Positions 28,688 to 54,325 of a stretch of DNA of 64,000 nucleotides are shown here, one piece after another. Within the stretch, counting starts at the first letter, position 1. Every line of letters begins with the position of its first letter. The notes under the pieces are model-generated. The model was given only the letters and a program-made list of their open reading frames with translations, did not search any database and was not told where the DNA came from. Position numbers and translations under genes: made by a program. This DNA is from Anaeromyxobacter sp. (GTDB taxonomy: Bacteria; Myxococcota; Myxococcia; Myxococcales; Anaeromyxobacteraceae). The DNA is taken from NCBI GenBank assembly GCA_049840735.1, contig JASGJN010000013.1, positions 128,001-192,000 of the forward strand. The letters run 5' to 3'.

Positions 28688-29924
28688 ATGGCGGCGGCGT
28701 GGGCAGCGCTCCTTGTGGCCGTGCAGCTCGGGGCCGCGCCGGAGGCGCCCCTCTACTCCGAGGGGGCGCGCATCGCCAACCTCCCGGCCGCGCCGGGCGG
28801 GCAGCTCCCGGACCTGACGCGGCTCGCGCAGGCCGCCATGCCCGCGGTGGTGGGCGTGCTGACGACGCAGCGCACGCCGCCCACCATGGCCGACGACTCG
28901 CTGCGCGACCTCTTCGACAAGCTGCACGACGGGCCGCGCAAGGGCGTGGGCTCGGGCTTCGTGATCCGACCGGGACGGCTGGATCCTCACCAACGCCCAC
29001 GTGGTTGAGGGCGCCGAACAGGTGGAGGTGGACCGCGGCGAGGGCCAGGCCCGCCTGCCGGCGCGCGTGGTGGGCCTCGACTCCGAGTCGGACGTGGCGC
29101 TCCTCAAGGTGGACGCCGGCGCGCCGCTGCCGGTGCTGCCGCTGGGCGACTCGGAGCAGCTGGGCGTCGCCGAGTGGGTGATGGTGATCGGGAACCCGTT
29201 CGGCCTCGACCATTCGGTGACGCTGGGGATCGTGAGCCACACCGGCCGCGCCGACATCTCGCCGGTGGGCCGCCCCGGCACCTACGACTTCGTCCAGACC
29301 GACGCCTCCATCAACCCCGGCAACTCCGGCGGCCCGGTGCTCAACCTGCACGGTGAGGTGGTGGCCATCGCCACCGCCGTCAACGCCACGGGCCAGGGGA
29401 TTGGCTTCGCCATCCCCATCAACATGGCCAAGGAGATCGTCGGCCAGCTCAAGACGCGAGGGAAGGTTATCCGCAGCTGGCTGGGCGTCTCGGTCCGCGA
29501 GCCGGAGCCCGGCCCGGCGGCGACCGCCGCCGGCGTGGAGGTGGTGGAGGTGGCCGACGGCAGCCCGGCCGCGCGTGCCGGCGTCCGGGTGGGTGACATC
29601 ATCACCACCGTCCAGGGCCACGCCATCCACACCCCCTCCCGGCTGCGCTGGTACGTCTCCACCGCCGGCGTGGGGCAGGAGATTGAGCTGCGGCTGCGGC
29701 CCCGGCTCGGCGCCCGGGCTGCGCCCGGCGCGGTGGCGCGGAGGACCTCGGCCCCCTCGCCGGCCTCGACCGGCGCCGGGGCCGGCGGGGTGACCGCGGT
29801 GGGCGCCGCGGGCGCCGCCGAGGAGGCCGCGGCGGCCGGGGAGCGCACCTTGCGGGCGGTGCTGGTGGAGGTGCCCAGCGCCGAGCAGGCCCGCGAGGCG
29901 ACGCGGCCGCTGGTCGGGGAGTGA
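28688..29924 (+). CDS. HtrA/DegP-like serine protease with PDZ; one frameshift at 28963-28967
   Basis: GSGFVI then, one frame over, DGWILTNAHV, SDVALLK, IGNPFGL, QTDASINPGNSGGP; extra C after GATC. Confidence 0.88.
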
Positions 29925-30034
29925 CGGCCGGGGCGTGGCAGCCCCTCCGCCCTCCCGCGCTGGCGGGAAAACCGGCCTGGGCCCGCGCGCTTGGGGTTGC
30001 TTCCGGCCTCCGGGTCTGGTATCGAGCGCCCTCC

Positions 30035-30320
30035 ATGGCCGAGACCAAGACCAACAAGAAGAAGGCCCCCGCGCCCAAGGGCAACGGGAAGAAGGCCTGC
30101 TCCATCCAGGGCTGCAAGCGCGCGTACCGTGCGAAGGGGCTCTGCTTCTTCCACTACAAGAAGTGGCGCCGCGACGAGATTCGAGGCCAAGCCGGGCCGC
30201 TACGACACGTGCAGCAAGGCCGACTGCAAGAAGAAGGTGGTCGGGCACGGCCTCTGCCAGGAGCACTTCGACGCCTGGAAGAAGTCGCGCAAGAAGAACC
30301 AGGCCGCCGCCGCGGCCTAG
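30035..30320 (+). CDS. Small Lys-rich protein with two C-x4-C-x9-C-x2-H repeats (myxobacterial 'vegetative protein'-like); one frameshift at 30178-30182
   Basis: CSIQGC…CFFH in one frame and CSKADC…CQEH in the next; joined by reading GATTC as GATC. Confidence 0.8.
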
Positions 30321-30472
30321 GACCTCCCAGGCTCCGCCAGCCCGGATTTCATCCGGGTGAAACGGTGCGGAGCGGCCGCTCCGGCCGGTGAGGCGCTCGC
30401 GCGCCGGCCGGCCGGATCGGACGGTCCAGGCCCAGCGGCCCCTCCGGAACTCCATCCGGGCGGAATACCCCG

Positions 30473-30500
30473 AGCCTCCCGGTGCTGCCGGGGGGCTTTT
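30473..30500 (+). terminator. Putative intrinsic terminator
   Basis: AGCCTCCCGG-TGCTG-CCGGGGGGCT hairpin followed by a short T tract. Confidence 0.5.
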
Positions 30501-30630
30501 GGCGTCTCACTCGGCTTGCGTTCACCGTCGAGTGGCTGCGCCCGGAGCTTCGCCTGGCCCGGAGTGGTTTCGTTCACTTCGGCCGGCCGAAGCTGGAGCG
30601 CCAGCCGGTTGCACGCGCCCGGGGGCTCGT

Positions 30631-30783
30631 GACTGGCTCGTGCCCGGCTGGCCCGTGCCCGGCTGGCCCGTGCCCGGCTGGCTCGTGCCTGGCTGGCTCG
30701 TTCCCGGCTGGCTCGTGCCCGGTGGCTCGTGCCCGGTGGCTCGTGCCCGGTGGCTCGTGCCCGGCTGGCTCGCGCCTGGCTGG
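30631..30783. repeat. Tandem repeat, about 10 units of 14-15 bp, consensus GG(C)TGGCTCGTGCCC
   Basis: Units start at 30631, 30646, 30661, 30676, 30691, 30706, 30721, 30735, 30749, 30763. Confidence 0.92.
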
Positions 30784-30816
30784 GTGGGGCTTGGGGAACG
30801 CCGCGGGTCCCGGTCC

Positions 30817-31614
30817 CTAGCCAGCCTGGCCCAGCTGGCGCTCCAGCGCGCGCAGCGCGGCGAGCAACAGCTCCACCTCGCGCTGCGTGGGATCGGCGCG
30901 GGAGAGCAGCCGCCGGAAGTCGGCCAGGATGTGCTCAGGGTTCTGCGGGTTCAGGTACCCGGCGCGCGCCAGCACCGCCTGGGCCCGCGTCCAGAGCGCC
31001 TCCACCGTCGCGTGGCGCGCCGGCTCCGCGGGAGGAGCGCCGGACGGCGCGGCCGCGAGCGGGGCCGCCGCCGGCGCCGGGACGCCCCGGGCCGTCATGG
31101 CCAGCTCGTACGCGACCACCGCCACCGCCTGGGCCAGGTTCATCGAGTCGTAGGCCTGGCCGGTGGGGATGGTGCAGACCGCCTGGCAGAGCTCCAGCTC
31201 CGCGTCGGAGAGGCCCCGGCGCTCCTCCCCGAAGACCACCGCCACCTCCCCCGCCTCGCTGCGGCGGGCCAGCTCGGCGGCCAGCTGACGGGGGTCGAGC
31301 TGGGGCCGCCCCTCCACGGCCCGAGACGTGGTGCCGCAGGTCCAGGTGGCCGTCCCCAGCGCCGCCCGCAGGTCGGGATGGACCTCCAGCTGGTCCAGCA
31401 GGTCGGCGGCCTTCCGCGCCATGCGGCGCGCCCGGGCCAGGACGTCCTCGCGAGCCGTCCCCGGGCCACCGCCGCGCGGCGGACCCGCCCAGGCCTCCGG
31501 CGCCACCACCACCAGCCGCTGGAGGTCGAAGTTCTTCATGACCCGCGCCGCCGCCCCGAGGTTCTCGGCGCTCTGCGGCCGGTGCAGCACCAGCCTGATC
31601 CGACCTGCGTTCAT
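30817..31614 (-). CDS. SPOUT RNA methyltransferase, TrmJ/LasT family
   Basis: ENLGAAARVMKNF, VVFGEERRGLS, SMNLAQAV. Confidence 0.9.
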   Translation of the reverse strand: MNAGRIRLVLHRPQSAENLGAAARVMKNFDLQRLVVVAPEAWAGPPRGGGPGTAREDVLARARRMARKAADLLDQLEVHPDLRAALGTATWTCGTTSRAVEGRPQLDPRQLAAELARRSEAGEVAVVFGEERRGLSDAELELCQAVCTIPTGQAYDSMNLAQAVAVVAYELAMTARGVPAPAAAPLAAAPSGAPPAEPARHATVEALWTRAQAVLARAGYLNPQNPEHILADFRRLLSRADPTQREVELLLAALRALERQLGQAG

Positions 31615-31710
31615 CGACCCTCGCCCGGGGCGGCCCCGCTCCCGCAGGGACGCGCCCCTGCGCTCATCGCGCTGCCCCGTCCTGGCCCCGACCGTATAAC
31701 ATCGCGCGCC

Positions 31711-32670
31711 ATGATCACCGACGACCTGCTCCGCGCCCAGCTCCCCCACACGCTCCGCCAGCTCGACCTCCCCGGCCTGGGCGAGCTGTACCGGGGGAAG
31801 GTGCGCGACAACTACACCCGGGGTGACCGGATCGTGATGGTCACGACCGACCGCGTGTCCGCCTTCGACCACGTCCTGGGGACCATCCCGTTCAAGGGCG
31901 GGATCCTCTCCCGGCTCACCACCTTCTGGTTCGAGAAGGTGAAGGACATCGCCCCCACGCACCTGGTGGCGGTCCCCGACCCCAGCGTCATGGTGGTCAA
32001 GAAGGCCCGGGCGCTGCCGGTGGAGATCATCATCCGCGGCTACATCACCGGCTCGCTCTGGCGCGACTACCAGGCCGGCAAGGCCGGCGCCTACGGCATC
32101 ACCTGGCCGGCCGGGCTCAGGAAGGACCAGCGCTTCGAGACGCCGGTCATCACGCCGTCCACCAAGGCCGAGTACGGCAAGCACGACGAGCCCATCAGCG
32201 AGGCGGAGATCCTGAAGCAGGGGCTGGTGGCGCCGGACGTCTGGCGCGAGGCCGTGGCCGTCGCGCAGCGGCTGTTCCAGCGCGGGCAGGAGTGGGCCCG
32301 CACCCGCGGCCTGATCCTGGTGGACACCAAGTACGAGATGGGGATCGCCGACGGCAAGCTGGTGGTCATCGACGAGATCCACACGCCCGACTCCTCGCGC
32401 TACTGGGTGGCCGAGGGGAGCGAGGAGCGGTTCGCGCGCGGCGAGGAGCAGCGGATGCTCGACAAGGAGAACATCCGCCAGTGGCTCATCACCGAGCGCG
32501 GGTTCTCCGGCCAGGGCACGCCGCCGCCCATCCCGGACGACGTGCGGGTGATGCTGGCCCGCAAGTACGTGGACCTCTACGAGCAGCTGACCGGCGAGAC
32601 CTTCCGCTCGCAGGTGGGCTCGGTGGAGTCCCGCATCGCCGCCAACCTGAAGGCGGCCGGCCTGTACTAG
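31711..32670 (+). CDS. purC: Phosphoribosylaminoimidazole-succinocarboxamide synthase
   Basis: YRGKVRD, TDRVSAFD, RGYITGS, TPSTKA, LVDTKYE, DEIHTPDSSRYW, DKE. Confidence 0.96.
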   Translation: MITDDLLRAQLPHTLRQLDLPGLGELYRGKVRDNYTRGDRIVMVTTDRVSAFDHVLGTIPFKGGILSRLTTFWFEKVKDIAPTHLVAVPDPSVMVVKKARALPVEIIIRGYITGSLWRDYQAGKAGAYGITWPAGLRKDQRFETPVITPSTKAEYGKHDEPISEAEILKQGLVAPDVWREAVAVAQRLFQRGQEWARTRGLILVDTKYEMGIADGKLVVIDEIHTPDSSRYWVAEGSEERFARGEEQRMLDKENIRQWLITERGFSGQGTPPPIPDDVRVMLARKYVDLYEQLTGETFRSQVGSVESRIAANLKAAGLY

Positions 32671-32678
32671 CGGCGCGC

Positions 32679-33494
32679 GTGGCCGCCCGGGCGCCCCCAG
32701 CCGAGGCTTCCCCGGGCGGCGCGCCGCGCGGGCCAGGGGCCGCGCCGCGGGGGGGCGGCGCAGGGGCGCGCGCGCAGCCGCCGTCCCCGCCGCTGCCGCT
32801 GGTGCTGCTGCCCGGGATCGACGGCAGCGGCCGGCTCTACGCGCCGCTGCTGGCCGCCGCGCCGCGGGGGCTGGCGCCGGTCAGCGTCGCCTACCCGGCG
32901 GACCGGCCGCTGGGCTACCCGGCGCTGGTCGAGCTGGCCCGGGCGGCGCTGCCGCGCGCCGGCCGCTTCCTCCTGCTGGCGGAGTCCTTCTCCGGCCCGA
33001 TCGCGGTCCGCCTGGCCGCCGAGCGGCCGCCCGGGCTGGCCGGGCTGGTGCTGGCCGCGAGCTTCCTCCACGCGCCGCTCCACCCGCTGCTCCACCCGCT
33101 GCGCGCGCTGGTGGGCGCGCGGCTCTTCGGCCTGCCCATGCCGCCGGCGGTGATCCGCCACTTCATGGCCGGGCCGGACGCGCCGGCACCGCTGGTGGAG
33201 GAGGTGCGGGCCGCGGTGACCGCGGTCCGCCCCGAGGTGCTGGCCCACCGCTCGCTGGAGGCGCTGCGCGAGGACGTCCGGCCGCTGCTGGCCGAGGTGC
33301 AGGCGCCCATCCTCTGGCTCGCGCCGAAGCGCGATCGGCTGCTCCACGCCGGGGCTTCCGCCGAGCTGCAGGCGCTGCGGCCGGACGCCGAGGTGGTCCA
33401 CCTGGACGCGCCGCACATGATCCTGCAGCGCGCCCCGCACGCCTGCCTGGCGGCGATCGAGCGGTTCGCGGCGGCGCTGGAGGCCGGGGGCTGA
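32679..33494 (+). CDS. Alpha/beta fold hydrolase
   Basis: LLPGIDGSG, nucleophile elbow AESFSG, D (RDRL), H (APH); start uncertain. Confidence 0.8.
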   Translation: MAARAPPAEASPGGAPRGPGAAPRGGGAGARAQPPSPPLPLVLLPGIDGSGRLYAPLLAAAPRGLAPVSVAYPADRPLGYPALVELARAALPRAGRFLLLAESFSGPIAVRLAAERPPGLAGLVLAASFLHAPLHPLLHPLRALVGARLFGLPMPPAVIRHFMAGPDAPAPLVEEVRAAVTAVRPEVLAHRSLEALREDVRPLLAEVQAPILWLAPKRDRLLHAGASAELQALRPDAEVVHLDAPHMILQRAPHACLAAIERFAAALEAGG

Positions 33495-33551
33495 GGAGCG
33501 GCGAGGTTCCGGTTCCGGCCCCGGTTCCAGTCCCAGTCCGGTCCCTCCCCC

Positions 33552-35228
33552 TCAGCGCAGGTCGTACGCGTAGAAGACCCGGAGCACCGTCGCCGCATCC
33601 GTGGCGACCGGCCCGCCCGGATCCTGCGACCAGCGCAGCATCCGGGTGACGTCCACGCCGGCGCCGTGCTCGCGGCCGAGCCGCGCCATCACGTGGGCGG
33701 CCAGGTCGAGCCGCGCCTCCGTCCCCTCCCCCTCGCCCACGCCGTACAGGTAGAAGGGCCGCACGGTCCCGCCGACGCGCCAGTGGCGCGAGAGCAGCTC
33801 GGCCTCGAGCAGCCCCTCGGCGCCCGGGCCGAAGCGGTAGTCGCGCCCGGCGCCGCCCACGCTGGGGATCTGGCCCGCGGCGCCCAGCAGCACGGCGGTG
33901 CCCACGGCGGAGCCCTCCAGCGCCAGCCCGTCCTGGAGCTGCCAGTGCAGCGAGGTGCCCACCGCCAGGCCGCTGCCGGAGGTGCGGAACGGGCCAGGCG
34001 AGTCGATGGAGAAGGTCAGGTAGAGGCCCCACAGCCCGCGCAGGTCCGGGGCCGGCGCCAGCGGCTCGCCGGCGATCAGGCCGCGGATCCGCATGGTGGA
34101 GACCGGATCGGCGGTGAGGCCGTAGGAGGCGTCGAAGACGAAGTGGTCGAAGGGGCCGTCGAGCCGCAGGTCCGGGTCCGCCGGCACGCCGTAGACCACC
34201 TGCAAGCCGCCGAAGGGAACGCCCTTGCCCGGCTCGAGCCACTGGTCCTTGCCCGGGTCCCCGCCCAGCCCGCCCGCCGTGGCCAGCAGGCGCATCGACG
34301 GCAGCGGGCGCGCCGGCCGCGGCCCCACCCAGCCGCGGTTGATGGCGCTCATGGGCGCGAGCACCACCGAGAAGACCCGGCTCCCCAGGTCGCCGCGGGC
34401 CCAGAGGCCGTCGGAGGTGCGGAGCAGCACCTCGCCCAGCGAGATGCCGGCCACGGTGGTGGTGATCTGGTCGTTGATGGCGGGCGGGAGCGTCTCGCCG
34501 CTGTACTCCCAGGCCAGGCTGGAGAAGAACGGGTAGAGCGACGACGTCCAGAAGCCGAGCCCGGCCGAGCGCGCCGCGGTGTAGGACCAGGTCCCCTGGT
34601 ACGGGTGGCCGAACTGGTTCACCCAGAACTGATCGTCGTCGAGCACCCAGGCGCTCTGGAGGTTGGCGCCCACGCTGTCCCAGGTGATCTCGGCCCACTC
34701 GGCCTCGCCGACCCACTTGTTCCACTTCATGATGATGAAGTGGATGGCCACCGACTCGGTGACGGACACGGTCACCGGGTCTCGCCAGAAGGGCGGGCGG
34801 GCCGGGGCCAGCGCGAGCGGCTCGCTCGCGCCCGGGAGCGAGGAGGCCGCCGCGGGCTGCGCCAGCCCCTCGCCCGGCGGCGGCGCCGGCACGGTGGACG
34901 GCGGGCCCGCGGTGGCCTGCACCACCGCGTCCGGGTCGGCGGCGCCGACCGCGGGGACGGGCGCGATGGCATCGACCGCTGCGGCCGCAGGGACCGGCGC
35001 TGCCGCGGGGACGTCAGCGGCTGCAGGAACGGACGCGGTCGCTGGGTCAGGCGCGCCGGCCGGGTCGGCAGCAGGCTGCGGCTGCGGCGCCGCGGCGTCC
35101 CCCGGCTGCGAAGCGGCCGGGCGCTCCCCGGCTGGGGCGGCGGCGGGCAGCACGATCCCCTCGGCAGCGGCGCCGCGCGCGGCCCACGCCAGGAACAGCC
35201 CGAAGACGATCGAATGCGCCCGCTTCAC
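33552..35228 (-). CDS. DUF3943-domain secreted/outer-membrane protein
   Basis: Signal-like N-terminus, Ala/Pro linker, [14 protein letters not shown]…ARSAG…WEY.GE…PAIND; beta-rich C-terminus; start uncertain. Confidence 0.75.
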
Positions 35229-35421
35229 GAAAAGACCAACCTGCCCGGCTCTCCCTCGCCGCCGAGTATACGCCGAGAGCGGAGGGCGCATTCCCCCTCG
35301 CCCGCGTGACGCGGGGACGGGGCACGCGCGGCAGCCTGCCGCGCTGCAGGGCGCCCGAGGGCCCGCGCCGCGCCCGGCGCGAGCGCCGCGTCCCCCCGGC
35401 GCCCCGCCTTCACGCTGCGTC

Positions 35422-36741: not shown

Positions 36742-36778
36742 GTCTGGCCTCCTGCCGGCGCGCGCGCCGGGGAAATGA

Positions 36779-37225: not shown

Positions 37226-37242
37226 GCTCTGATCTTCCGGAC

Positions 37243-37294
37243 GCCCTGAGCGTAGGACCGGGGCGCCTGGCGCCCCGGTCCGGAGTCGAAGGGC
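37243..37294. repeat. REP-like palindromic repeat, copy 2
   Basis: gccctgagcgta-ggaccggggcgcc-t-ggcgccccggtcc-ggagtcgaagggc. Confidence 0.75.
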
Positions 37295-37329
37295 AGGGGC
37301 CCAGAGGCCCCGCCACTCACGCCATTGAC

Positions 37330-39500
<2,171 letters not shown>

Positions 39501-42142: not shown

Positions 42143-44968
42143 CTAGTCCAGCGACGGCCGGATCTCCTCCAGCTCGAACACCTCGAGCACGTCGCCGGCC
42201 TTCACGTCGGTGTAGCCGTCGATCCCGATGCCGCACTCCAGGCCGGCCGCCACCTCGCGGACGTCGTCCTTGAGTCGCTTGAGCGAGCTGATCTTGCCGG
42301 AGTGGACCACCTTCCGGTCGCGCAGCACGCGGGCCAGGCTGGCGCGCTTGATGACGCCGTCGGTGACCGCCGAGCCGGCGATGGCGCCGATCTTCGGGAT
42401 GTTGAAGAGCTGGCGGACCTCGGCCTTGCCCAGCGGCTTCTCCCGGATGATCGGGTCGAGCAGGCTGACCATCTCCTCGCGGACCGTGTCCACCGCCTCG
42501 TAGATGATTCGAGAAGAGCAGGATCTTCACGCCCTGCTGGCTGGCGATCTGCTCGACCTTCGTCTCCGGCTTGGTGTTGAAGCCCACGATGACGCCCTTG
42601 CCGGCCGCGGCCGTGAGGACGTCGGACTCGGTGATGGCGCCCACGCCGGAGTCGAGGATCTTGACCCCGACCTTCTTGGTGGCGGCCTTCTGCAGCGCCT
42701 GCGTGACGGCCTCGGAAGAGCCCTGCACGTCGGCCTTCACCACCACGTTGAGCACCTTGGCGCCGGAGGTCTTGGCCTTGGCGAACAGGTCCTCGAGGGT
42801 GGCCTTCTTGACCGAGGAGAGCTCCTTGGTCCGGGCCTTCTCGGCGCGGTGCTCGGCGACCTCCTTGGCCGACTTCTCGTCCTCGACGACGTTGAACTCG
42901 TCGCCGGCCGTGGGGACGCCGGAGAGGCCCAGCACCTCGACCGGATAGCCGGGCGGGACCTCCTTCACCTGCTCGCCGCGCTCGTTCATCATGGCGCGGA
43001 CGCGGCCGTGGTGCGTGCCGGTGACCAGCGCGTCGCCGACGCGGAGGGTGCCCTCCTCGACCAGGACGGTGGCGACGGCGCCGCGGCCCTTCTCCAGCTT
43101 GGCCTCGATGACGTGGCCGTAGGCCAGCGCCTCGGGGTTGGACTTGAGCTCGAGCACCTCGGACTGCAGGGCGATGTACTCCAGCAGCTCCTTCACGCCC
43201 TGCTTGGTGCGGGCCGACACGGGCAGCATGATGGTGGTGCCGCCCCACTGCTCGGCCACCAGCTCGTACTCGGTGAGCTGCTGCATCACGCGCTCGGGCG
43301 CGGCGTCCGGCTTGTCGATTCTTGTTGATGGCGACGAGGATGGTCACCCCGGCCGCCTTGGCCTGCTTGATCGACTCGATGGTCTGGGGCATCACGCCGT
43401 CGTCCGCCGCCACCACCAGCACCACCAGGTCGGTCACCTGGGCGCCGCGCTGGCGCATCGCGGTGAAGGCCTCGTGGCCGGGGGTGTCGAGGAAGGTGAT
43501 GGGGCCCTGCGGCGTCTGCACCGAGTAGGCGCCGATGTGCTGGGTGATGCCGCCGGCCTCGCCCGCGGCCACGTCGGCCTGGCGGATGGCGTCGAGCAGC
43601 GAGGTCTTGCCGTGGTCGACGTGACCCATCACGGTCACGACCGGCGGCCGGATGACGAGCTTGGACTCGTCCACCTCGACCTCGGGGATGAACTCCTCGA
43701 CCTCGAAGCCCTTCTTCTCGACGGTGTAGCCGTTCTCGACGGCCAGCAGCGCGGCCGTGTCGGCGTCGATCTGGGCGTTGATGGTGACCATCTTCCCGCC
43801 CTGCATCAGCTTGCGGAGGAGGTCGGCCGCCTTGACGCCCATGGCCTGCGAGAGCTCCGAGACCGAGATGGACTCCTCGATCCGGATGACCTTCTTGTGC
43901 TCGGCGCGCTCGGTGATTCTGGGTCTTCGCACCCTTCTTCGTAGGCTTCTTCTTCTTTCCGCGAACCGGGACGTAGGACCGGTCGCTGATGGCGGCCTGG
44001 AGCAGCTCCTTGCCGCTGAGGTTCTTCGCGGCCTCTTCCGAGACCGGGCGGCCGGCCCCGCGGCCGCGCTTGTTCTTGTCGCGCGAGACGTCGATGAACT
44101 CGCGCTCGCGACCCAGCGAGCCCGGGACGACCTTCAGCTCACGGATGTCGCCCAGCGCCCGGGGCCCGGGGGCCGCGGGGAAGGACTGCCGCGAGCTGGT
44201 GGGCGGCGTGACGCGGCGGACCGGCACCAGGGGCCGAGAGATGACCACGGCCTGGGTGGAGGTCGGGCGCAGGGTGCGCGGATCGACCGGCGGCTGGCCC
44301 GGCGCGCCCGCGTGGGCAGCGTTGGGCGCGGTGGGCCGCGTGTGGGTGGTGGAGACGGACGGGCCGTGGCCGTGCGTTGCGGGCGCGTGGGCGGCGGGCG
44401 CGTGCGCGGCCGGCGCGTGCGCGGCCGGCGCCGGGGCGGCGGGCGCGTGGGCAGGGGCCTGCACCGCGGCGACCGGCGCGGGCGCCGCGACGGCCGCGGG
44501 GGCCGGCGCCTGGACCTGCGCGGCCACGGCGGGCGCGGCGGCCTCGGCGGCGAGCGCCGGGGCCTCCGGCGCAGGGGCGGCCGGCTCGGCGACGGCAGGC
44601 TCGGCCGGCTCGACGGGCGGCGCGGCCTCGACCTCGGGCTCCGGCTCGTACTCGGCGACCGGCGCCTCGACGACAGGCGCGGCGACCTCGTGCGCGGCCG
44701 GCGCGGCGTGGACCGGGCCGTCGGTGTGGGCCTTGCGACGCACCACGAAGCCAGGGCCGGTGGGACGGACGGGCGCCGGCTTCGGCTTCCGCTCACCCAT
44801 GATCTTCTCGAACGCCGACGCGGCCTGGTCGTCCTCGAGGGAGGACGAGTGGCTCTTCACCTCGTGGAACCCGAGGGCGTGGAGCTTCTCGACCAGCTCC
44901 TGATTGGAGAGCTCGATGCCGTTCTCCTTCAGCTGCTTGCCGAGCTCGTGGACCCGCTTCTTCGTCAT
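42143..44968 (-). CDS. infB: Translation initiation factor IF-2; three frameshifts (43915, 43317, 42506)
   Basis: [30 protein letters not shown](I)D, KADVQGS, ECGI; each break is repaired by reading GAATC as GATC. Confidence 0.96.
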
Positions 44969-44979
44969 TGCGTGGACTC

Positions 44980-45257: not shown

Positions 45258-45261
<4 letters not shown>
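44980..45261 (-). CDS. ylxR: YlxR/DUF448 RNA-binding protein
   Basis: [14 protein letters not shown]…C, AFGRALR; TTG start overlaps the nusA stop. Confidence 0.88.
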
Positions 45262-46927
<1,666 letters not shown>

Positions 46928-46929
46928 GG

Positions 46930-47446
46930 TCAGTCCTTCCTCCGGAGGTCCGCCTCGACGTCGTACTCGAGGTGGGCCTTGGCGATTTCGATCGTGCGGG
47001 ATGCGGTGCAGGACGCCGTCGACGTCCACCTCCACCGCGCCGTCCCTGAAACCCTTCAGCACGCCGGTCCAGCCCTTGCGCGGCGGCTGGCCGGGGGCCG
47101 TGCCCGGCACCGGGCCGTAGCTCTTCACCTGGACGCGCTGCCCGGCGTAGCGGTCGAAGTCGGCCGGCTTGCGCAGCGGGCGGTCCAGGCCGGGCGAGGA
47201 GACCTCCAGGTCGTACGCCGGCTCGATGAAGTCCTCGACGTCGAGGATCGGCTCGATGGTCCGGCTGGCGCCCTGGCAGTCGTCGACGCCGATGCCGCCG
47301 GCCTTGTCGATGAAGACACGGAGCGTCCAGCGGCCCGCCTGGCGGAGCCACTCGACCTCGACCAGCTCGTAGCCGTCGCGGGCCAGCACGGGCTCGAGGA
47401 CCCGGCGTGCCTGCTCAGCGATCGATTCCTGCCCGATGCCCGTCAT
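46930..47446 (-). CDS. rimP: Ribosome maturation factor RimP; one frameshift near 46984-46993
   Basis: [24 protein letters not shown]; corrected end IAKAHLEY…RKD*. Confidence 0.94.
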
Positions 47447-47453
47447 GAACCCC

Positions 47454-47486
47454 AAAAAAGAAAAAGTGGGCGAAGCCGCCCACTTT
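47454..47486 (-). terminator. Terminator-like hairpin (attenuator) in the rimP leader
   Basis: Perfect 10-bp stem AAAGTGGGCG/CGCCCACTTT with a T-rich tail on the - strand, ending a few nt before the rimP ATG. Confidence 0.75.
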
Positions 47487-47525
47487 CGTAACCCGGCGTG
47501 ATCCGGGGCCGAAAATGTGGGCGTG

Positions 47526-47554
47526 TAGGTAACAAATGGCGCGTGGTGCGTCAA
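47526..47554 (-). promoter_or_regulatory. Putative sigma70-type promoter of the rimP-nusA-infB operon
   Basis: TTGACG-17 bp-TACCTA, with TG at the extended -10 position. Confidence 0.4.
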
Positions 47555-47686
47555 GGAAGACCTGGCTCCGCCTTCCCCCGGCGAGGGGACGGGCCGCCGC
47601 CGGGCCTGCCGTTGAGCGAGGGGCTACCCAGCCTTTCGCCGTCCGTGTATTCCCTATGGAGCAGCCGCCCTGCGGCGGACGACCGC

Positions 47687-48537
47687 ATGCCTCCCGCTTT
47701 CCACCGCCCCTACCGGACCTTGGCCGCCGCCTGCATCCTGCTGGCGCTCATCCCGGTGGCGCTCGCCCAGACCGTCCCCAGCCCGGCCCAGCTCGCCGGC
47801 GCGTACGCCGGCTGGGCGCTGGCCTGCTACATGGCCGCGGCCATCAGCGCCGCCCAGGTGGCCGTCACCTTCGACGGCGGCGACCTGCAGCGGGCCGGGT
47901 GGGGGCTCCTGGCCGGGGCCTTCCTGGTGCTGTTCCTGGCCCGCCTGTCCGCGCCCCCGAACCCCTTCAAGCTCTACGACGGGCCGGCGCCCGCGCCCGC
48001 GCTGGTCAGCATCGCCAGCATCATCTCCTCGTCCCTGGCGGCCGCCGGGTACCTGGTGCTGGCCCTGGCCTGGCACCGCTCCGGCCTGGACGACGCCAGC
48101 CCGCGCCGGCGGTGGGTGAGCGCGCTGGGCGGCCTGGGGGTGGCGGCCGCGCTGGCCGGGCCCGACCTCGTGCAGCAGCTCCCCGCCGCCCTGCGCGGCG
48201 ATCCTCCGCCGCCGCCGACGTGATCACCGACCTCATGGACGCGGCCATCTTCGTGGTGGCGGTGCCGGTGCTGCGCGCCGCGCGCTCGCTGGGCGGCGGC
48301 GTGGTGCAGTGGCCCTGGCTGCTGCTCACCCTGAGCGTCGCCGGCTGGCTGGGGTACGACGCGCTGGCGGCCTACGGCAGCGCGCTGGGGGTCTCCAACT
48401 GGACCGTCCGCGTGGGAGACGAGGCGTTCCGCACCCTCGCCTGCCTGGGCGCCTTCGGCGCCGGCACGGCCCAGCGCTGGGTGATGAACCAGGCGCCTGG
48501 GGCGGAGCTGGACGCCCGGACCAGGAGCGCGGCGTGA
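47687..48537 (+). CDS. Multi-TM membrane protein, paralog 1; one frameshift at about 48200
   Basis: Two ORF halves align end to end with the intact paralog 48860-49699; one base is missing right after GATC. Confidence 0.82.
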
Positions 48538-48623
48538 GCGCACCGACCTCGCCCCACAGGCAGTTCCACCAACCTCGACCGCGGGCTATCCAGCCGCGCG
48601 GCCGCGCGCTATAGGCGCTGCGA

Positions 48624-48863
48624 ATGGCTCCCGGGGGCGTCGCAGAGCGGATCGAGGCCAGGCTGGCCCTGCTGCTGGGCCCGAACAACGCGCGCAACGC
48701 GGTGCGGACCTTCGCGCGGCGCTCGCTCGAGATCGAGCCGGAGCAGCTGCGCCCCGGCGACGCCGCGCGCCTGATGGAGGCGCTCCGCCCCATGCTGAGG
48801 ACGCTCCTGGGCGCCACCACCGCCGAGCGCGTCATCCGCGAGATCACGGAGGACGTCGGATGA
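48624..48863 (+). CDS. 79-aa soluble helical hypothetical protein
   Basis: Typical codon usage; its stop overlaps the next start (ATGA). Confidence 0.8.
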   Translation: MAPGGVAERIEARLALLLGPNNARNAVRTFARRSLEIEPEQLRPGDAARLMEALRPMLRTLLGATTAERVIREITEDVG

Positions 48864-49699
48864 GCTGGCGCGCGCACCGTCCGTACGCGCTGCTGGGCCT
48901 GCTCTGCGCGGCGCTCGCCGCCGTGCCGGTGATCATGGCCCGCACCGTGCCCGACCCCATGGCGCTGGCCGGCTCGTACATGGGCTGGACGCTGGGCCTC
49001 TACCTGGCCGCCTTCACCGGCGCGGCGCTGGCCGCCGCCACCTTCGGCGCCGACGACGCGCAGCGGCCCGGCTGGCTGCTGATGGGGCTGTCCTACCTGG
49101 CGCTGCTGCCGGCGCGGCTCCTGGTGGGCCCCAACCCGAGCGGCCTGTTCCAGGCCGACGAGCCGCTGCTCTGGCTGCGCGTGGTGTCGAGCGTCGCCAA
49201 CTCGTCGCTGATGCTGGCCGCGATGCTGGCCCTGGCCCGCGCCTGGCGGCAGAGCGGCCTGGACGACCCGCGCCCCTGGCTGCGCTGGGTCACGCAGCTG
49301 GCGGGCGTGGCGCTGGCGGTGGCGCTGATGGGGCCGGACCTGATCCGCACCCAGCTCCCCGCCGTGCTGGACGGCGACGCGGCCGCGTGGGGCAACGTCA
49401 TCACCGACGTGCTGGACGGCCTGGTGCTGGCGGTGGCGGTGCCGGTGCTGCGGGCCGCGGTGGCGCTGGGCGGCGGCCTGGTGGCCTGGCCCTGGCTCTT
49501 CCTCACCACCGGCCTGCTGGGCTGGATCTGCTTCGACGCCATCGCCGCCTCCGACGGCCTGGGCCTCACGCCCTTCGACGCCCGCACCGCCACCGAGGTG
49601 GCCCGCACCTGGGCCTGCCTCTTCACCATGGCGGCGGGCGCGGCGCAGCGCTGGATCATGTCCGCGCCGCCGGGCGCGCCGGACGAGGATGCGGTCTAG
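48860..49699 (+). CDS. Multi-TM membrane protein, paralog 2
   Basis: About 8 hydrophobic segments; motifs shared with paralog 1. Confidence 0.85.
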   Translation: MSWRAHRPYALLGLLCAALAAVPVIMARTVPDPMALAGSYMGWTLGLYLAAFTGAALAAATFGADDAQRPGWLLMGLSYLALLPARLLVGPNPSGLFQADEPLLWLRVVSSVANSSLMLAAMLALARAWRQSGLDDPRPWLRWVTQLAGVALAVALMGPDLIRTQLPAVLDGDAAAWGNVITDVLDGLVLAVAVPVLRAAVALGGGLVAWPWLFLTTGLLGWICFDAIAASDGLGLTPFDARTATEVARTWACLFTMAAGAAQRWIMSAPPGAPDEDAV

Positions 49700-49956
49700 G
49701 GCAGCAGCCGCAGCCCCAGCAGCCACTCGCGGTTGCCGGCGGGCCCGATGATCACACGGGGGCTGCGCCCCCGCCCCGCCGGCACAGCCGTCGGGGCCCC
49801 ACCCCGGCTCCGCGGGGCCCTGCGCCGTGCTCGCCGCTTCGCGGCTCCGCGCGGCTGCCCCGCGAGGAGGGGCTACGCCCCTCCCCCCTGCTTCGCAGGG
49901 GCCCCCCGCCCCTCGAGCCGCAGCCCCAGCAGCCACTCGCGGTTGCCAGCGGGCCC
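49696..49956. repeat. 41-bp direct repeat (49706-49746 / 49916-49956) duplicating the tlyA 3' end around a hairpin-rich spacer
   Basis: agccgcagccccagcagccactcgcggttgcc(g/a)gcgggccc, one mismatch, 210-bp period. Confidence 0.85.
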
Positions 49957-50697
49957 TTCGATGGGCGACTCGGCGTGCCCCAGCACCTCGAAGCCGAGCC
50001 CGCGCGCGGCCTCGGCGACGCCCTCCAGCGCGGCGCGCCGCTTGGCCTCCTCGCGGACCACGCCGCCCTTCCCCACCTCGCCCTTCCCCACCTCGAACTG
50101 CGGCTTGACCAGCAGCGCCGCCAGGCCGCCCGGGCGCAGGATGGCCTTCACCGCCGGCAGGATCAGCCGGAGCGAGATGAAGGAGAGGTCACCCACCACC
50201 AGGTCCACCGGGCCGCCCAGCGCCTCCGCGGTGAGGGCGCGGGCGTTCTCGCGCTCGCGCACCACCACCCGCGGGTCGGCCCGCAGCCGCGGATGGAGCT
50301 GGCCGTAGCCGACGTCGATGGCCAGGACCTGGGCCGCGCCGCGCTGGAGCAGCAGGTCGGTGAAGCCGCCGGTGGAGGCGCCCAGGTCGGCGCAGCGCAG
50401 CCCGCGCGGCTCGATGGGGAAGACCTCCAGCGCGCGCTCCAGCTTGAGCGCGCCGCGCGAGACGTACTTCTGCGGGGCGGCGTCGGCCTTGAGCCGCAGC
50501 GGCAGCGCCGGGTCCACCAGCGCGCCGGGCTTGTCCACCCGCGCCTCGCCCGCCACCACCGCGCCGGCCATCACCAGCGCCTGGGCGCGGGTGCGCGACT
50601 CCGCCAGGCCGCGCTCCACGAGCAGGAGGTCGATGCGCTGCCGGCGGGGCGGCCGCGGGGGCCGCTCGCCGGGCGGGGCTGGCGGGCCGCCGCTCAC
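49873..50697 (-). CDS. tlyA: TlyA family rRNA 2'-O-methyltransferase
   Basis: S4 domain, YVSRGALKL, DLGASTGGFTD, DLSFISL, LVKPQFE, SPIEGPAGNRE. Confidence 0.95.
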   Translation of the reverse strand: MSGGPPAPPGERPPRPPRRQRIDLLLVERGLAESRTRAQALVMAGAVVAGEARVDKPGALVDPALPLRLKADAAPQKYVSRGALKLERALEVFPIEPRGLRCADLGASTGGFTDLLLQRGAAQVLAIDVGYGQLHPRLRADPRVVVRERENARALTAEALGGPVDLVVGDLSFISLRLILPAVKAILRPGGLAALLVKPQFEVGKGEVGKGGVVREEAKRRAALEGVAEAARGLGFEVLGHAESPIEGPAGNREWLLGLRLEGRGAPAKQGGGA

Positions 50698-52602
50698 GCC
50701 GCGCCGCGCGCCTTGCGGTCGCCCACCAGGGCCCGGGCCGCGGCCGCGATCCCCTCCGCGTCCAGCCCGAAGGCGGCCCGCTGGCGGCCGGCGTCTCCGT
50801 GGGTGACGAACTCGTCCGGCAGCCCCAACCGCTTCACGGCCAGGCCGCGCTCCAGCAGGCCGCGCCGCTCGAAGGCCTCCAGGCAGCCGGCCCCGAAGCC
50901 GCCCGGCAGGCAGCCCTCCTCCACCGTCACCACCCGCCCGGCGCGCTGCGCCTCGCCGGCGATCAGCTCCTCGTCGAGCGGCTTCACGAAGCGCGCGTCG
51001 ATCACCGTGGCGGCGATCCCCTCGGCGCCGAGCTTCTCCGCGGCGGCCAGCGCCGGCTTGAGCGTGGTGCCGACCGAGACCAGGCAGACGTCCGGCTTGC
51101 CCGGCACGTTCCGCAGGAGCCGGCCCTTGCCCACCTCCAGCGCGCGCGGCGGCTCCACCGCCACGCCCTCGCCGGCGCCGCGCGGGAAGCGGAAGGCGGC
51201 CGGCCCGTCCAGCGCCAGCGCGGTGTGGAGCGCGTGGCGCAGCTCGTTCTCGTCCGACGGGGCCATCACCACCAGGTTGGGCACGCAGCGCAGATAGGCC
51301 AGGTCGTAGGCGCCCTGGTGCGTCTTGCCGTCCGCGCCCACCAGGCCGCCGCGGTCGAGCGCGAACGTGACCGGGAGCTTCTGCAGCGCCACGTCATGGA
51401 TGATCTGGTCGTAGGCGCGCTGCAGGAAGGTGGAGTAGATGGCGACCACCGGCCGGATCCCGTCGCAGGCCAGGCCGGCGGCGAAGGTGACGGCGTGCTG
51501 CTCGGCGATGCCGACGTCGTAGGTGCGGTCCGGGAAGCGCTGCTTGGCCTGGATGAGGCCGGTCCCCTCCAGCATTGCGGCGGTGATGGCCACCACCCGC
51601 GGGTCGGCGGCCATCTCGTCGCAGAGCGCGCCGGCGAAGTGGTCGGTGTAGGCCTTGGCCCCGGCCTTCTTGACCGGCTTGCCGGTCTCGACGTCGAAGA
51701 AGGACAGGCCGTGGCCGCGGGTGGCCTTGTCCGACTCGGCCGGCTGGTACCCCTTGCCCTTGGTGGTGATGACGTGCAGCAGCACCGGGCCGTCGAAGGT
51801 GGCCAGCTTGCGGAAGGTCTCGACCAGCTTCACCACGTCGTGCCCGTCCACCGGCCCCACGTAGTGGAAGCCCAGCCCCTCGAAGAGGATGCCGGGGGTC
51901 ACCAGCGCCTTGGTGGCGTTGATGCCGTGGCGGATCATCTCGATGGCCTGCGGCCCCTTGGGCACCTGGGCCAGGAACTCCTTCACCGACTTGCGCCAGC
52001 GGTTGTAGGTCCGCGAGGCGAACTTCTTCGAGAACCACTCCGACATCGCCCCGACGTTGGGCGAGATCGACATCTCGTTGTCGTTCAGCACCACCAGCAG
52101 CGAGCGCCCCAGGTAGCCGGCCTGGTTCAGCCCCTCGAAGGCCATCCCGCCGGTCATGGCGCCGTCGCCCACCACCGCCACCACCTTGCCCGGCTCGCCG
52201 GTCAGCCGCTTGGCCTCCATCATGCCCAGCGCGGCGCTGATGGCGGTGGAGGCGTGGCCCACGCCGAAGGCGTCGTGCACCGACTCGTGCCGCTCCGGGA
52301 AGCCGGCCAGCCCGCCCTCGGTGCGGATGGTGTGGAAGGCCTCGCGCCGCCCGGTGAGGAGCTTGTGGGCGTAGGCCTGGTGGCCGACGTCCCAGACCAG
52401 CTTGTCCTCCGGGGTGGAGAACACGTGGTGCAGCGCCACGTTGATCTCTACCGCGCCCAGCGACGAGCCGAGGTGGCCGCCGGTGCGGGCGCAGGTCTCG
52501 ATGATCTCGCGGCGGAGCTCCTCGCAGAGCGCGGGGAGCTCCTCGGGCGGGAGGCGCTTGAGATTCGGCGGGGCTGTCGATGCCGTCGAGCAGTCGGGCC
52601 AT
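50694..52602 (-). CDS. dxs: 1-deoxy-D-xylulose-5-phosphate synthase; one frameshift at 52562-52566
   Basis: GGHLGSSLG, WDVGHQAY, GDGAMTGG, LNDNEMSI, DVGIAEQHAV, YSTFLQRAYDQ, DRGGLVGADG. Confidence 0.96.
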
Positions 52603-52620
52603 GTCACGCTCCTTCGTTCC

Positions 52621-53521
52621 CTACTTCTGTCGCGACAGCACGAACCGCGCCAGCGCCCGGAGGGCTGCGGCCGGCTCCCCCAGGGGAGCGAGGCCGTCGA
52701 GCGCCTCCTCGAGCAGCACCGCCGCCCGCCTGCGCGCCTCCTCCGCCCCCAGCACCGCCGGCAGCGTGGCCTTGCCCGCCGCCGCGTCCTTGCCGGCGCG
52801 CTTGCCCAGGGTGGTGGTGTCGGCGGTGAGGTCGAGCAGGTCGTCGGCGATTCTGGAAGGCCAGCCCGAGCTTGAGGCCGATGGCGTGGGCCCGGGCCTG
52901 GTCGGCCCCGGCGCAGACCGCGCCGCCCGCCACCGCCGCCGCCAGCAGCGCGCCGGTCTTGGTGGACATGAGCTGCAGGATCTCCGCCTCGCCCAGGGGG
53001 CGGTGCTCGCCCTCGATGTCGCGGGCCTGCCCGTCCACCATCAGCAGCGCGTCGTCTGCCAGCAGCCGCCCCAGCTGCGCGGCGCGCGCGTCCTCCGCGG
53101 CCAGCAGGTGGGCGAAGGCCAGCGACTGCAGCCCGTCGCCCACCAGGATGGCGGTGGCCTCGTCGAAGGCGCGGTGCACCGTGGGCCGGCCCCGGCGCAG
53201 GTCGTCGTCGTCCATGGCGGGCAGGTCGTCGTGGACGAGCGAGTAGGTGTGGATGGCCTCGAGCGCGACCGCGAAGCGGAAGGCCAGCCCGTCGTCGGAT
53301 GCGTCGCCGCCGTGCGCGGTGCAGGAGGCCAGCACCAGCGCCGGGCGGAGGCGCTTGCCGCCGCCCAGCAGGGCGTGGCGCATGGCCTCGACCAGCCGGG
53401 CCGGGGCCACCTTGGCCCGCGCGTCCAGCAGCGCCGAGAGGCGCGCCTCGACGCGCGCGGCGACGGCGCGGAGGTAGGTGTCGATGTCGTGATCGGGCGG
53501 CAAGCGGGAGGGTTCTAGCAC
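52621..53521 (-). CDS. ispA: Farnesyl/geranyl diphosphate synthase; one frameshift at 52849-52853
   Basis: GGKRLRP, SLVHDDLPAMDDDDLRRG, GQ..D, KTGAL, AFQ(I)ADDLLD, GK.AGKD; start uncertain. Confidence 0.92.
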
Positions 53522-53623
53522 AGCGTCTGGCCCGCCGATTGTGGAAGGCCGGACGCAGGCCGGAGGTGGACGGCCGGACACGCGCGTCCCTGCCGGGTGC
53601 CTCCGGACCTCGGGCGCCGCGCC

Positions 53624-54037
53624 TCAGGCCGGCGTCGGCAGCGCCCCGGCGCGCTGGCCCAGGATCTCCCGGATGCGCGCCACCAGGCGGTCCATGTCGA
53701 GCGGCTTGGGGAAGTAGTCCACCGCGCCGGCCTCGAGCCCGGCGCGCTCGTCCTCGGCGCTCTTGCGCGCCGAGATGAAGATGACCGGGATGTCGCCGAA
53801 GGTGGGGTTCTTCTTGATGGCCCGGCACAGCTCGAAGCCGTCGATCCAGCTCATCATGACGTCGAGCAGGATCACGTCGGGCCGGTCCACGTGCATGGCG
53901 GAGATGAGCCGCAGGCCGTTCGCGGCCTGGCCCACGTCGAAGCCCTCCAGCTCCAGCGCCAGCGTGAGCATCTCGCGGGTGTCGCGGTCGTCGTCGACGA
54001 TGATGATGCGGGGGCGGGCGGGACGCGTCTCGGGCAT
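53624..54037 (-). CDS. Single-domain response regulator
   Basis: IIVDDD, LLDVMM, ISA, DYFPKP. Confidence 0.9.
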
Positions 54038-54045
54038 GGGCGGGC

Positions 54046-54325
54046 TCACGGCGCGCGGCCGGCCTCCACGTCGAGCGGGACCGCCGCCTCGTCGCCGTCC
54101 GCGGTGCGCACCAGCTGCTCCACGCGGCGCTCCGCCTCGTCGAGCTTGCGCGACGCCTCGCGCGCCAGCCGCACGCCCTCGGCGAACCGCTCGATTCGAC
54201 TGCTCCAGCGAGAGCTGGCCGCCCTCGAGTTCGCCGACCACGCGCTCCAGCCGCGCGACGATGGCGTCGTACGGATCCTCGGTGCCTGCAGGTGCGGCGG
54301 GACGTTCGCTGCTCGGCTCGCTCAA
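54046..54325 (-). CDS. xseB: Exodeoxyribonuclease VII small subunit; one frameshift at 54193-54197
   Basis: GGAGGT RBS + TTG; LE.VV.ELE.G.LSLEQS(I)ERFAEG…LDEAERRV. Confidence 0.9.

Follow-up and report, generated by a model that had tools for sequence, protein, structure and literature searches.

The frameshifts that break genes throughout the Anaeromyxobacter sp. assembly GCA_049840735.1 (G000) are, almost beyond doubt, artefacts of the assembly and not changes in the organism, with DNA modification very probably being their cause. The reading that we consider likely as a whole is that of consensus errors from native long reads at two ordinarily methylated motifs, GATC and GAGACCG, with N6-methyladenine (6mA) as the most likely mark. 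Motif-linked modification errors are already in print, and the phenomenon is almost certainly a known artefact rather than new biology.

Frameshift sites in the 64-kb window

The original prediction placed fourteen frameshifts, all at GATC, in the window, i.e. the whole 64-kb stretch of DNA analysed. The predicted words were found at all fourteen coordinates, nine sites reading GATTC or GAATC and five touching an intact GATC, as had been proposed. The sites are listed below with the support for each.

28963..28967, + strand: degP-like protease gene, +1 frameshift directly after GATC (3 relatives)
30178..30182, + strand: small cysteine/histidine protein gene, +1 frameshift at GATTC (3 relatives)
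37417..37421, - strand: pnp, +1 frameshift at GAATC (6 relatives)
37577..37582, - strand: pnp, +1 frameshift beside GATC (5 relatives)
42506..42510, - strand: infB, +1 frameshift at GATTC (6 relatives)
43317..43321, - strand: infB, +1 frameshift at GATTC (6 relatives)
43915..43919, - strand: infB, +1 frameshift at GATTC (6 relatives)
46245..46249, - strand: nusA, +1 frameshift at GAATC (5 relatives)
46842..46847, - strand: nusA, +1 frameshift beside GATC, a G run preceding the motif on the + strand (5 relatives)
46984..46993, - strand: rimP, +1 frameshift at GATTTC adjoining an intact GATC (5 relatives)
48200..48205, + strand: membrane-protein gene, frame change (-1 or +2) directly after GATC (frame translations only)
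52562..52566, - strand: dxs, +1 frameshift at GATTC (3 relatives)
52849..52853, - strand: ispA, +1 frameshift at GATTC (3 relatives)
54193..54197, - strand: xseB, +1 frameshift at GATTC (3 relatives)

Frameshift-aware alignment to the orthologous proteins of six relatives (G005, G006, G008, G009, G012, and G014) placed a +1 shift at all sites but one (13/14), with the backing of three to six relatives at each. No orthologue aligned at 48200, where inspection of the frame translations called for -1 or +2 after GATC; the site is therefore counted as an indel and not as a +1. Orthologues covered 52,704 bases of the window, within which no further shift was backed by more than one relative. Events seen with a single relative at 31707, 31960, 41155, and 44305-44564 were excluded from the count. 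A reference-free caller recovered nine of the fourteen sites, which were its only +1 calls in the window; its six -1 calls all lay within 12 nt of a stop, at gene junctions. Against a background in which 103 of 1230 windows hold a GATC-type word, fourteen out of fourteen corresponds to p ~1e-15. An in-frame GATTC at 19619 was considered as an error of the same type and rejected, G006 reading GACTC there.

That the frameshifts might be real, as pseudogenes, programmed recoding, or the work of a mutator acting at GATC, is barely credible. The only copy of infB would carry three shifts and the only copies of nusA and pnp two each, and their pieces are still 77-96% identical to G006 with no decay around them, which bears out the earlier claim that these are not pseudogenes. 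Slippery runs are absent at the sites, hundreds of such sites exist genome-wide, and G>A substitutions accompany the shifts at the same motifs. In favour of real frameshifts, no same-strain reads or contigs were found among the public runs, the best word share being 0.11 (20 rows had shares of 0.08-0.11 and one had 0.04). Four of these 21 rows, all from relatives and not from the strain, were compared at the sites: the extra base was absent from the relatives' contigs in 4/4 runs at 37582 (pnp), 43319 (infB), 46246 (nusA), and 46989 (rimP), and in 1/4 at 54197 (xseB).

GATC errors across the genome

The enrichment foreseen by the original prediction extends to the whole genome. The reference-free caller made 615 +1 calls in 2.84 Mb of strongly coding G000 DNA, spread over all 26 contigs, as against a single call in 150,567 nt of G006. 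GATC-type words were present at 379 of the 615 calls (background 103/1230), and the words GAATC or GATTC alone at 264, compared with 2 of the 1230 background windows. In a site test, the frame switched by +1 at 162/258 GAATC and 104/166 GATTC in G000 but at 0/5 and 0/2, respectively, in G006. Of the four lower-GC regions, three gave frameshift calls with too much noise for a judgement.

Substitutions tell of the same motif. The isoleucine codon ATT occurs 268 times in 13,087 after G and 36 times in 22,180 after C, and CAA 59 times in 1083 before ATC compared with 10 in 2982 before GTC or CTC. Among the substitutions, C>T/G>A at the base pair of the TC step in GATC predominates, and the errors centre on the G-A step. 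Frameshifts affect about 3% of coding GATC sites and G>A/C>T changes also about 3%, such that insertions of one base and substitutions are equally common and the total error rate reaches ~6% of GATC sites. Shifts were found in all 16 flanking contexts, in line with the proposal that the target is the 4-mer.

Several other routes to this footprint were abandoned. Markov observed/expected counts are blind to the effect (GATTC 2904 versus 2868 expected, GATC 0.96) because the error words raise their own expectation. Lists of blastn gaps against G006 contained too much noise to be counted without bias, and a first protein-level pass, with 135 events including shadow ORFs and start extensions, served as a lead only. 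Placement of the extra base by best codon score was discarded as biased, having taken out the T of GAATC and thereby created a false enrichment of GAAC.

A second motif, GAGACCG

The claim that no frameshift lies away from GATC holds in the window but not genome-wide: 195 of the 615 +1 calls have no GATC-type word, and these calls uncovered a second motif, GAGACCG, elsewhere in the genome. Hence, the footprint cannot be described as GATC-only. The frame switched by +1 at 22 of 89 GAGAACC when the next base was G and at 0 of 262 when it was any other base; for the reverse complement GGTTCTC, the switch was seen at 20/40 with a preceding C and at 1/54 with another base. In the substitution test, GAA-ACC-G gave 15/703 against 5/961, and the error spectrum of GAGACCG is that of GATC. 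This dependence on the seventh base looks like enzyme specificity, and it is difficult to account for a strain-type 7-mer unless a methyltransferase is involved; no enzyme in the genome could be assigned to GAGACCG. Further words, namely GANTC (CcrM type), CTCGAG, CTGCAG, CTGGAG, and CTGAAG, were all near baseline in the site test, as were GAGTC/GACTC, GAACTC, and GAAGTC. Slightly raised values were seen for CTCGAAG (5/192) and CTGAAG (14/746).

A sequence-context error made in basecalling, assembly, or polishing independently of modification would be consistent with rates that vary with the flanks (any shift from 0.5% to 8.4% over the 16 contexts), with the baseline bias towards A2G and G2A that exists even in amplified DNA, and with the wealth of +1 shifts in other few-contig relatives. 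We hold it to be highly improbable, since GAGACCG requires its seventh base, the near-identical words GANTC, GTAC, CATG, AGCT, and GGCC show any shift only at the baseline of 0.8-1.1%, and the insertions of those relatives follow no motif. Enzymes used for Hi-C cut GATC and GANTC; ligation junctions were nevertheless rejected as a source, as they would add four bases and cannot yield a 7-base motif. Modification misread by a native long-read method, as originally proposed, stands as the best cause, the modification itself being inferred.

Comparison with published long-read errors

In R10.4.1 data, C2T/G2A assembly errors at modified motifs, including G6mATC, vanish when amplified DNA is used, according to the sections of PMC11610603 drawn on here, and a six-species test recorded nine GATC-linked false SNP calls (10.64898/2026.01.14.699587). 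The errors in G000 resemble those that the consulted parts of these two sources describe in falling on short motifs that include GATC, in the dominance of C>T/G>A, in their even spread over the genome, and in the presence of several motifs per genome. They differ in that the motif-linked errors reported in those parts are substitutions and not +1 insertions, whereas insertions match substitutions in G000. The share of wrong GATC sites (~6%) is also far above the isolate data of 10.64898/2026.01.14.699587, which speaks against our preferred reading; platform and modification are moreover inferred for G000. Isolates with dnd and dpd systems likewise show high consensus error with some basecalling models, at one 4-base palindrome (GGCC in their case; 10.64898/2026.03.20.713089), but no dnd or dpdA was found in G000, which has the same errors at a second, asymmetric 7-base motif.

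On the preferred reading, the genome would stem from long-read sequencing of native DNA, probably on a nanopore platform and at modest depth. Methylation at the GA/TC step of GATC and in GAGACCG would shift the signal and cause reads of one strand to miscall that step; the consensus would then retain an incorrect base (AATC, GATT), the two calls together (GAATC, GATTC), or a lengthened neighbouring base. Since both motifs are strand-ambiguous, the mark could sit on A, G, C, or the backbone. Ordinary methylation with 6mA is nonetheless the probable chemistry.

Methyltransferases and other modification genes

Five adenine-type methyltransferases were found in G000, a genome that is 94% complete and full of frameshifts. 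Among them, the best candidate for the GATC writer, by similarity, is an orphan enzyme on contig C16.

G000:C16:48974-49828: orphan beta-class DpnA/M2.LlaDCHI-like methyltransferase

This 285-residue protein of the N6/N4 methyltransferase family has the beta-class order, with its DPPY motif first and the SAM-binding motif last. Among its best matches in a plasmid collection (45-49% identity, 248 bits) is the middle gene of the LlaDCHI operon of pSRQ700, a GATC system related to DpnII, and its closest relatives there, judged without a tree, are the second methyltransferases of DpnII-type operons. It is 46.7% identical to M2.LlaDCHI over 89% of its length and shares with that enzyme a similar size and the same DPPY-x-LSNGG stretch. 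Unlike DpnII-type systems, it is an orphan: no Dam-like partner or DpnII nuclease was found beside the gene or elsewhere in the 13 genus genomes searched, and no DpnI family member was found in 13 genomes, with a search that had no positive-control match. It also departs from M2.LlaDCHI and DpnA in its conservation at the genus level (orthologues in 12/12 same-genus genomes, with the arrangement beside a queG-like gene also kept) and in the replacement of the last glycine of the SAM-binding motif by alanine, which is shared by G011 while 11 other orthologues keep glycine, and for which reason the enzyme may be weak. Conserved orphans are represented by Dam, CcrM, and the families treated in the part of PMC4752239 drawn on here, which the C16 enzyme resembles in being both orphan and conserved across the genus. 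It differs from CcrM itself in its score against that family (233 bits, cut-off 830), in the missing C-terminal part, and in the absence of a GANTC footprint.

The methyltransferases of DpnII-type operons and CcrM make 6mA. That the same artefact arises from N4-methylcytosine (4mC) on the C of the TC step (GAT4mC and CGGT4mCTC) is improbable, since the characterised enzymes to which the C16 enzyme is most closely related are these 6mA makers, and it matches solved 4mC enzymes much more weakly (E 1e-12 versus 1e-58). N4-methylcytosine would, in its favour, place the dominant C>T/G>A exactly on the marked base pair, the N6/N4 family and those weak matches allow for it, and at GATC it would account for an error rate higher than in Dam-positive isolates. 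In one study, G2A enrichment in R10.4.1 data was likewise strongest at a 4mC motif, but G2A has been found at 6mA motifs too.

Whether the C16 enzyme is the GATC writer we regard, from its similarities, as about evenly balanced. Three few-contig relatives (G003, G008, and G011) carry its orthologue and many +1 shifts without a GATC footprint, which counts against the preferred reading; GAATC/GATTC make up 1/95, 0/15, and 3/102 of their +1 calls, respectively, in a comparison that is blind to platform. Pooled, the three show a weak excess of ATT after G (11/1165 versus 3/1329, p 0.03), which fits a genus-wide mark. The writer could instead be a strain-specific enzyme such as the prophage-borne PD-lambda-5B (Dam/D12 family), an alternative that concerns the enzyme only, overlaps with the preferred reading, and is rather unlikely. 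A PD-lambda-5A/B match lies at G000:C13 about 277,944-280,340, and a D12 match in only 2 of 12 same-genus genomes would fit the footprint-free relatives. However, a frameshift in the assembly, whether genuine or not, cuts the B gene in two, Dam models match it weakly (E 5e-5), the portion of PMC9519451 drawn on here gives no target motif, and the pooled excess fits a genus-wide mark. The GAGACCG writer would most likely be a gamma-class enzyme on C14 or C22.

The original prediction also named phosphorothioate, a 7-deazaguanine-type change, and a modified cytosine as candidates beside Dam-like 6mA, and proposed a search for the responsible genes. The search turned up the DpnA-like methyltransferase, in keeping with Dam-like 6mA, and no Dnd, Ssp, or DpdA genes. 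DndB, DndC, and DndD were not found in G000, the DndC search being positive in G014 (E 3.6e-117); DpdA was not found with two models, one of which had no positive-control match, nor was the DUF4007 nickase, with a search that had none. Among 331 ORFs from lower-GC islands, there was no match to Dnd, Ssp, or DpdA models. Ssp or BREX-4 phosphorothioation would call for a PAPS-reductase gene (sspD/brxP) together with DUF4007; the only PAPS-reductase matches in G000 are two lying side by side on C26, which we tentatively take to be sulphate-assimilation genes. A C5-methyltransferase (5mC, Sau3AI type) was found in 4/20 relatives and not in G000. With DndB, DndC, DndD, DpdA, and C5-methyltransferase families not found in a 94%-complete genome, phosphorothioate, 7-deazaguanine, and 5mC become less likely marks. 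On C14, a DpdE-like helicase adjoins a DrmMI-like methyltransferase and not dpdA, and QatABCD was rejected as a source of DNA 7-deazaguanine, its QueC-like protein being reported to target protein in the part of PMC13279940 drawn on here. The ten GATC-densest 400-base windows, examined as a possible origin mark, comprised a tandem repeat, a CRISPR-like array, coding stretches, and an unassigned stretch, and the origin was not located.

An unusual mark of this kind, with its genes unassembled or its system unrecognised, is accordingly very unlikely, the more so as several methyltransferases fit two or three separate motifs better. Its attractions are the high consensus error of dnd/dpd systems (10.64898/2026.03.20.713089), the unusually high error rate here, the incomplete and frameshift-rich genome, and the centring of errors on the G-A step. 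Just as slim is the chance that the G-A step of GATC and GAGACCG bears something beyond plain 6mA and 4mC, such as an adenine with a further modification, with writers outside Dnd, Ssp, and Dpd. If true, this would account for errors being far more frequent than in Dam-positive isolates, and error footprints in public long-read genomes could be mined for new DNA chemistry.

Significance for the assembly and the genus

As a species representative, G000 is estimated by extrapolation to carry ~1000 false frameshifts and about as many false G>A/C>T changes, and claims of gene loss, pseudogenes, or catalytic residues drawn from it are therefore unsafe. The assembly by itself, with no need of raw signal, reveals two and perhaps three methylation-type motifs, which makes such a reading an indirect hint at the methylome. 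The understanding of DNA modification is unchanged unless the mark proves unusual. For the genus, a conserved orphan GATC-type methyltransferase is indicated, and it might, as a tentative suggestion from sequence, be a genus-wide Dam-like regulator in these myxobacteria.

Frameshifts in the window and across the genome

The assembly (6.67 Mb in 26 contigs, 94% complete, ~74% G+C) is collinear over the window with the complete genome of a same-genus relative, G006, by alignment. The original prediction had placed 14 frameshifts here, all at GATC, and a sequence check found the words it had read at all 14 positions. Frameshift-aware alignment to orthologous proteins of six relatives, covering 52,704 of the 64,000 window bases, upheld 13 of the 14 as +1 shifts, each in three to six relatives; site 48200, with no aligned orthologue, was followed by reading frames only and is a change of -1 or +2 directly 3' of GATC. 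The 13 shifted sites lie among 283 intact and 9 converted GATC sites in the covered DNA, where no further shift was backed by more than one relative, so that the claim of no frameshift away from GATC stood within the window. The split genes had been held not to be pseudogenes, and this is borne out by infB, nusA and pnp, each present as one copy, each split, and with pieces 77-96% identical to G006; the sole other copy of dxs is a distant paralogue (34%). A search of public sequencing runs for reads of the strain found none (best share 0.11), and among the matches listed the relatives' contigs from four of 21 runs had one base fewer at 37582, 43319, 46246 and 46989 in 4/4 runs and at 54197 in 1/4.

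Genome-wide, a reference-free frame-switch caller, using a codon-pair model trained on 2380 long ORFs of this genome, gave 1231 raw calls, of which 454 within 30 nt of an upstream-frame stop were removed as likely gene junctions, leaving 615 +1 and 162 -1 calls across the 2.84 Mb that scored as strongly coding; the same caller returned one of each in 150,567 nt of G006. The expected word enrichment was recovered, with GATC, GAATC or GATTC within 9 nt of 379/615 +1 calls against 103/1230 background windows, and GAATC or GATTC alone at 264/615 against 2/1230. All 26 contigs carried +1 calls and 25 of them GATC-type calls. The footprint is shared (8/13 +1 calls) by a 148-kb contig end (G000:C22:825001-972777, L120-L127; 61% G+C), which holds genes for chemotaxis and metabolism and is either one large island or the product of a misjoin.

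When sites in coding context were tested individually, a +1 switch was found at 162/258 GAATC and 104/166 GATTC, compared with 0/5 and 0/2 in G006. Intact GATC showed any switch at 267/14,018 sites, and GTAC, CATG, AGCT and GGCC at 0.8-0.9%; overall, about 3% of coding GATC sites were frameshifted. The rate ranged from 0.5% to 8.4% over the 16 flanking contexts, being highest with A before or T after, and since all 16 were affected the target is the 4-mer itself, as had been proposed. Extrapolated over the 31,902 GATC sites of the genome, false frameshifts would number roughly a thousand.

Substitutions and further motifs

The isoleucine codon ATT occurred at 268/13,087 positions after G and 36/22,180 after C (1/980 and 1/1378 in G006), and CAA at 59/1083 before ATC and 10/2982 before GTC or CTC; besides the insertions, GATC is thus misread at some 3% of its sites, appearing as GATT or AATC. 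A pairwise substitution count against G006 ran in the same direction but was small (15/1202 against 4/1152). The aspartate codon GAT stands mostly before C (2508 GAT-C and 371 GAT-G, with GAC at 13,487 and 21,353), with the same trend in G006 over L009-L028, and GATC is thus favoured at silent sites in the genus. CTAG is depleted (0.22), and a CRISPR-like repeat array near G000:C13 474025, outside the window, has one GATC in each repeat.

Beyond the window the claim of no frameshift away from GATC failed, as 195 +1 calls had no GATC-type word. AGAACC occurred 37 times among these, against 5 in 1230 background windows. GAGAACC lay at a +1 switch in 22/89 cases when the next base was G and in 0/262 when it was not; the mirror word GGTTCTC lay at a switch in 20/40 cases after C and 1/54 otherwise. 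The underlying word is GAGACCG (CGGTCTC on the other strand), and its error spectrum is that of GATC: A doubled after G, a flanking base doubled, and G>A, the last seen as GAA-ACC-G at 15/703 against 5/961 (p 0.005). None of the window's 18 GAGACCG sites, for example those at 11528 and 43859, is shifted, and this explains why the original prediction named GATC alone.

The +1 rate per scored position fell from 0.0075 to 0.0036 on masking GATC-type words and to 0.0029 on masking both motifs; the best word then left was AGGCCCAT (+1 switch at 7/42), from which AGGCCAT is tentatively put forward as a third motif.

Proposed cause and published precedents

The insertions and the G>A/C>T changes are tied to two motifs and occur in genes not all of which can be non-functional; the pattern almost certainly belongs to the assembly, not to the organism. 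The genome was probably sequenced as native DNA with long reads. A mark at the GA/TC step would then lead reads of one strand to miscall that step, and the consensus would retain either the miscalled base or both. Since this step reads GA on one strand and TC on the other, 6mA, 4mC and a mark on the backbone look alike in the assembly.

In R10.4.1 assemblies (PMC11610603), errors are reported to be mainly C2T and G2A, strand-specific, clustered at motifs such as G6mATC, and gone with amplified DNA; R10 data have G2A as the most raised class within 6mA and 4mC motifs (10.64898/2026.01.14.699587). The present pattern resembles such modification-induced long-read consensus errors and is a member of that class on the features testable here, an artefact of an already known kind. 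Its error rate, however, is far higher than in the isolate data of the latter source, where a six-species test gave 9 GATC-linked false calls, which could come from low depth or an older basecalling model. Among the literature matches listed, none dealt with +1 insertions at GATC.

Candidate modification genes

All methyltransferases found in the genome are of the amino-methyltransferase kind.

Candidate modification genes and the C14 defence island
G000:C16:48974-49828 (L055:1501-2355): beta-class methyltransferase, 285 aa
G000:C13:277944-280336 (L035:12944-15336): PD-lambda-5A/B of a phage-like element; a frameshift splits B
G000:C14, helicase cluster: DrmMI/type IIG-like enzyme
G000:C22: two gamma-class methyltransferases
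G000:C14 81-115 kb (L069:1132-17838, L070:6295-14471): defence island with many transposases; DruE/DpdJ-like and DpdE/DrmD-like helicases, DrmMI-like methyltransferase, PLD, HNH, Gabija A piece, Uzume, complete Menshen

A complete QatABCD lies at G000:C20:808468-813083 (L136:4468-9083), with an AbiEii gene nearby. The phage-like element holding PD-lambda-5 has capsid, head protease and integrase remnants; the frameshift splitting the B gene may itself be an assembly error, and the available text of PMC9519451 gives no target motif for the system.

There is a small chance that an unusual DNA chemistry lies behind the high error rate; dnd and dpd systems are described as likewise yielding error-prone assemblies (10.64898/2026.03.20.713089). 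Family searches of the genome did not find DndB or DndD, nor DndC (the same search was positive in G014, of another family, at E 3.6e-117), nor DpdA with two models (the positive control being silent for one), DUF4007 (control silent) or a C5 methyltransferase. PADLOC, run on 331 of 336 ORFs picked from the larger lower-GC islands, matched none of them to Dnd, Ssp or DpdA; the other five were scanned separately, and the smaller islands and high-GC bulk were covered by family searches only. The dndC of G014 lies at G014:C3:720006-721052, and the 160 kb sampled from that genome are nearly frameshift-free. In G000, tgt is present twice at full length, with nearly equal scores, at C13:8924-10051 (L030) and C17:448265-449320 (L031); the open frame of the second extends into a methyltransferase domain of MnmC type. 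The errors most likely stem from ordinary methylation of the two motifs, GATC and GAGACCG.

On account of the gene inventory, the favoured, sequence-based assignment is 6mA, with the C16 beta-class enzyme as candidate writer at GATC. Orthologues of this enzyme occur in 12/12 same-genus genomes, ten of them whole (82-85% identity) and two in pieces, and in 2/8 genomes of other families (60-65% identity). The gene is divergent from a queG-like gene, and neither a nuclease nor a second methyltransferase was seen in its flanks. Among the best plasmid matches (45-49% identity, 248 bits) is the central gene of operons that also encode a Dam-like methyltransferase and a type II nuclease. One such plasmid, pSRQ700, is described as carrying LlaDCHI, a DpnII-related GATC system (PMC6458302, PMC4190342); CcrM-type matches were weaker (up to 211 bits; 233 of 830 bits). 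In the C16 enzyme Ala stands for the last Gly of the SAM motif, as in G011. The gene resembles DpnA-type GATC enzymes but does not stand within a DpnII-type system; neither DpnII nor DpnI nuclease was found in the genome, the control for the latter being silent. It is a candidate Dam/CcrM-like regulator.

Relatives carrying the enzyme

The insertion footprint was not seen in the few-contig relatives carrying a C16 orthologue: GAATC or GATTC accounted for 1/95 +1 calls in G003 (180 kb), 0/15 in G008 (180 kb; 6/15 near intact GATC) and 3/102 in G011 (200 kb). Pooled, the three had a weak ATT-after-G excess (11/1165 against 3/1329, p 0.03). These counts are neutral on the enzyme. G009 and G014 were nearly clean (3 and 2 calls).

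No methylome of the genus was found among the literature matches listed, and the main text of PMC4752239 has no mention of it; methylated GATC is reported among wastewater contigs, some later placed in another class of the phylum (PMC12772301).

Motif-free +1 frameshifts reached 105 and 164 for every 100 kb of coding DNA scored in two species representatives, G003 and G011, at the following loci:
G003: L038-L039, L077-L083
G011: L044-L045, L091-L096, L115-L116

The gene calls of both representatives are unreliable.
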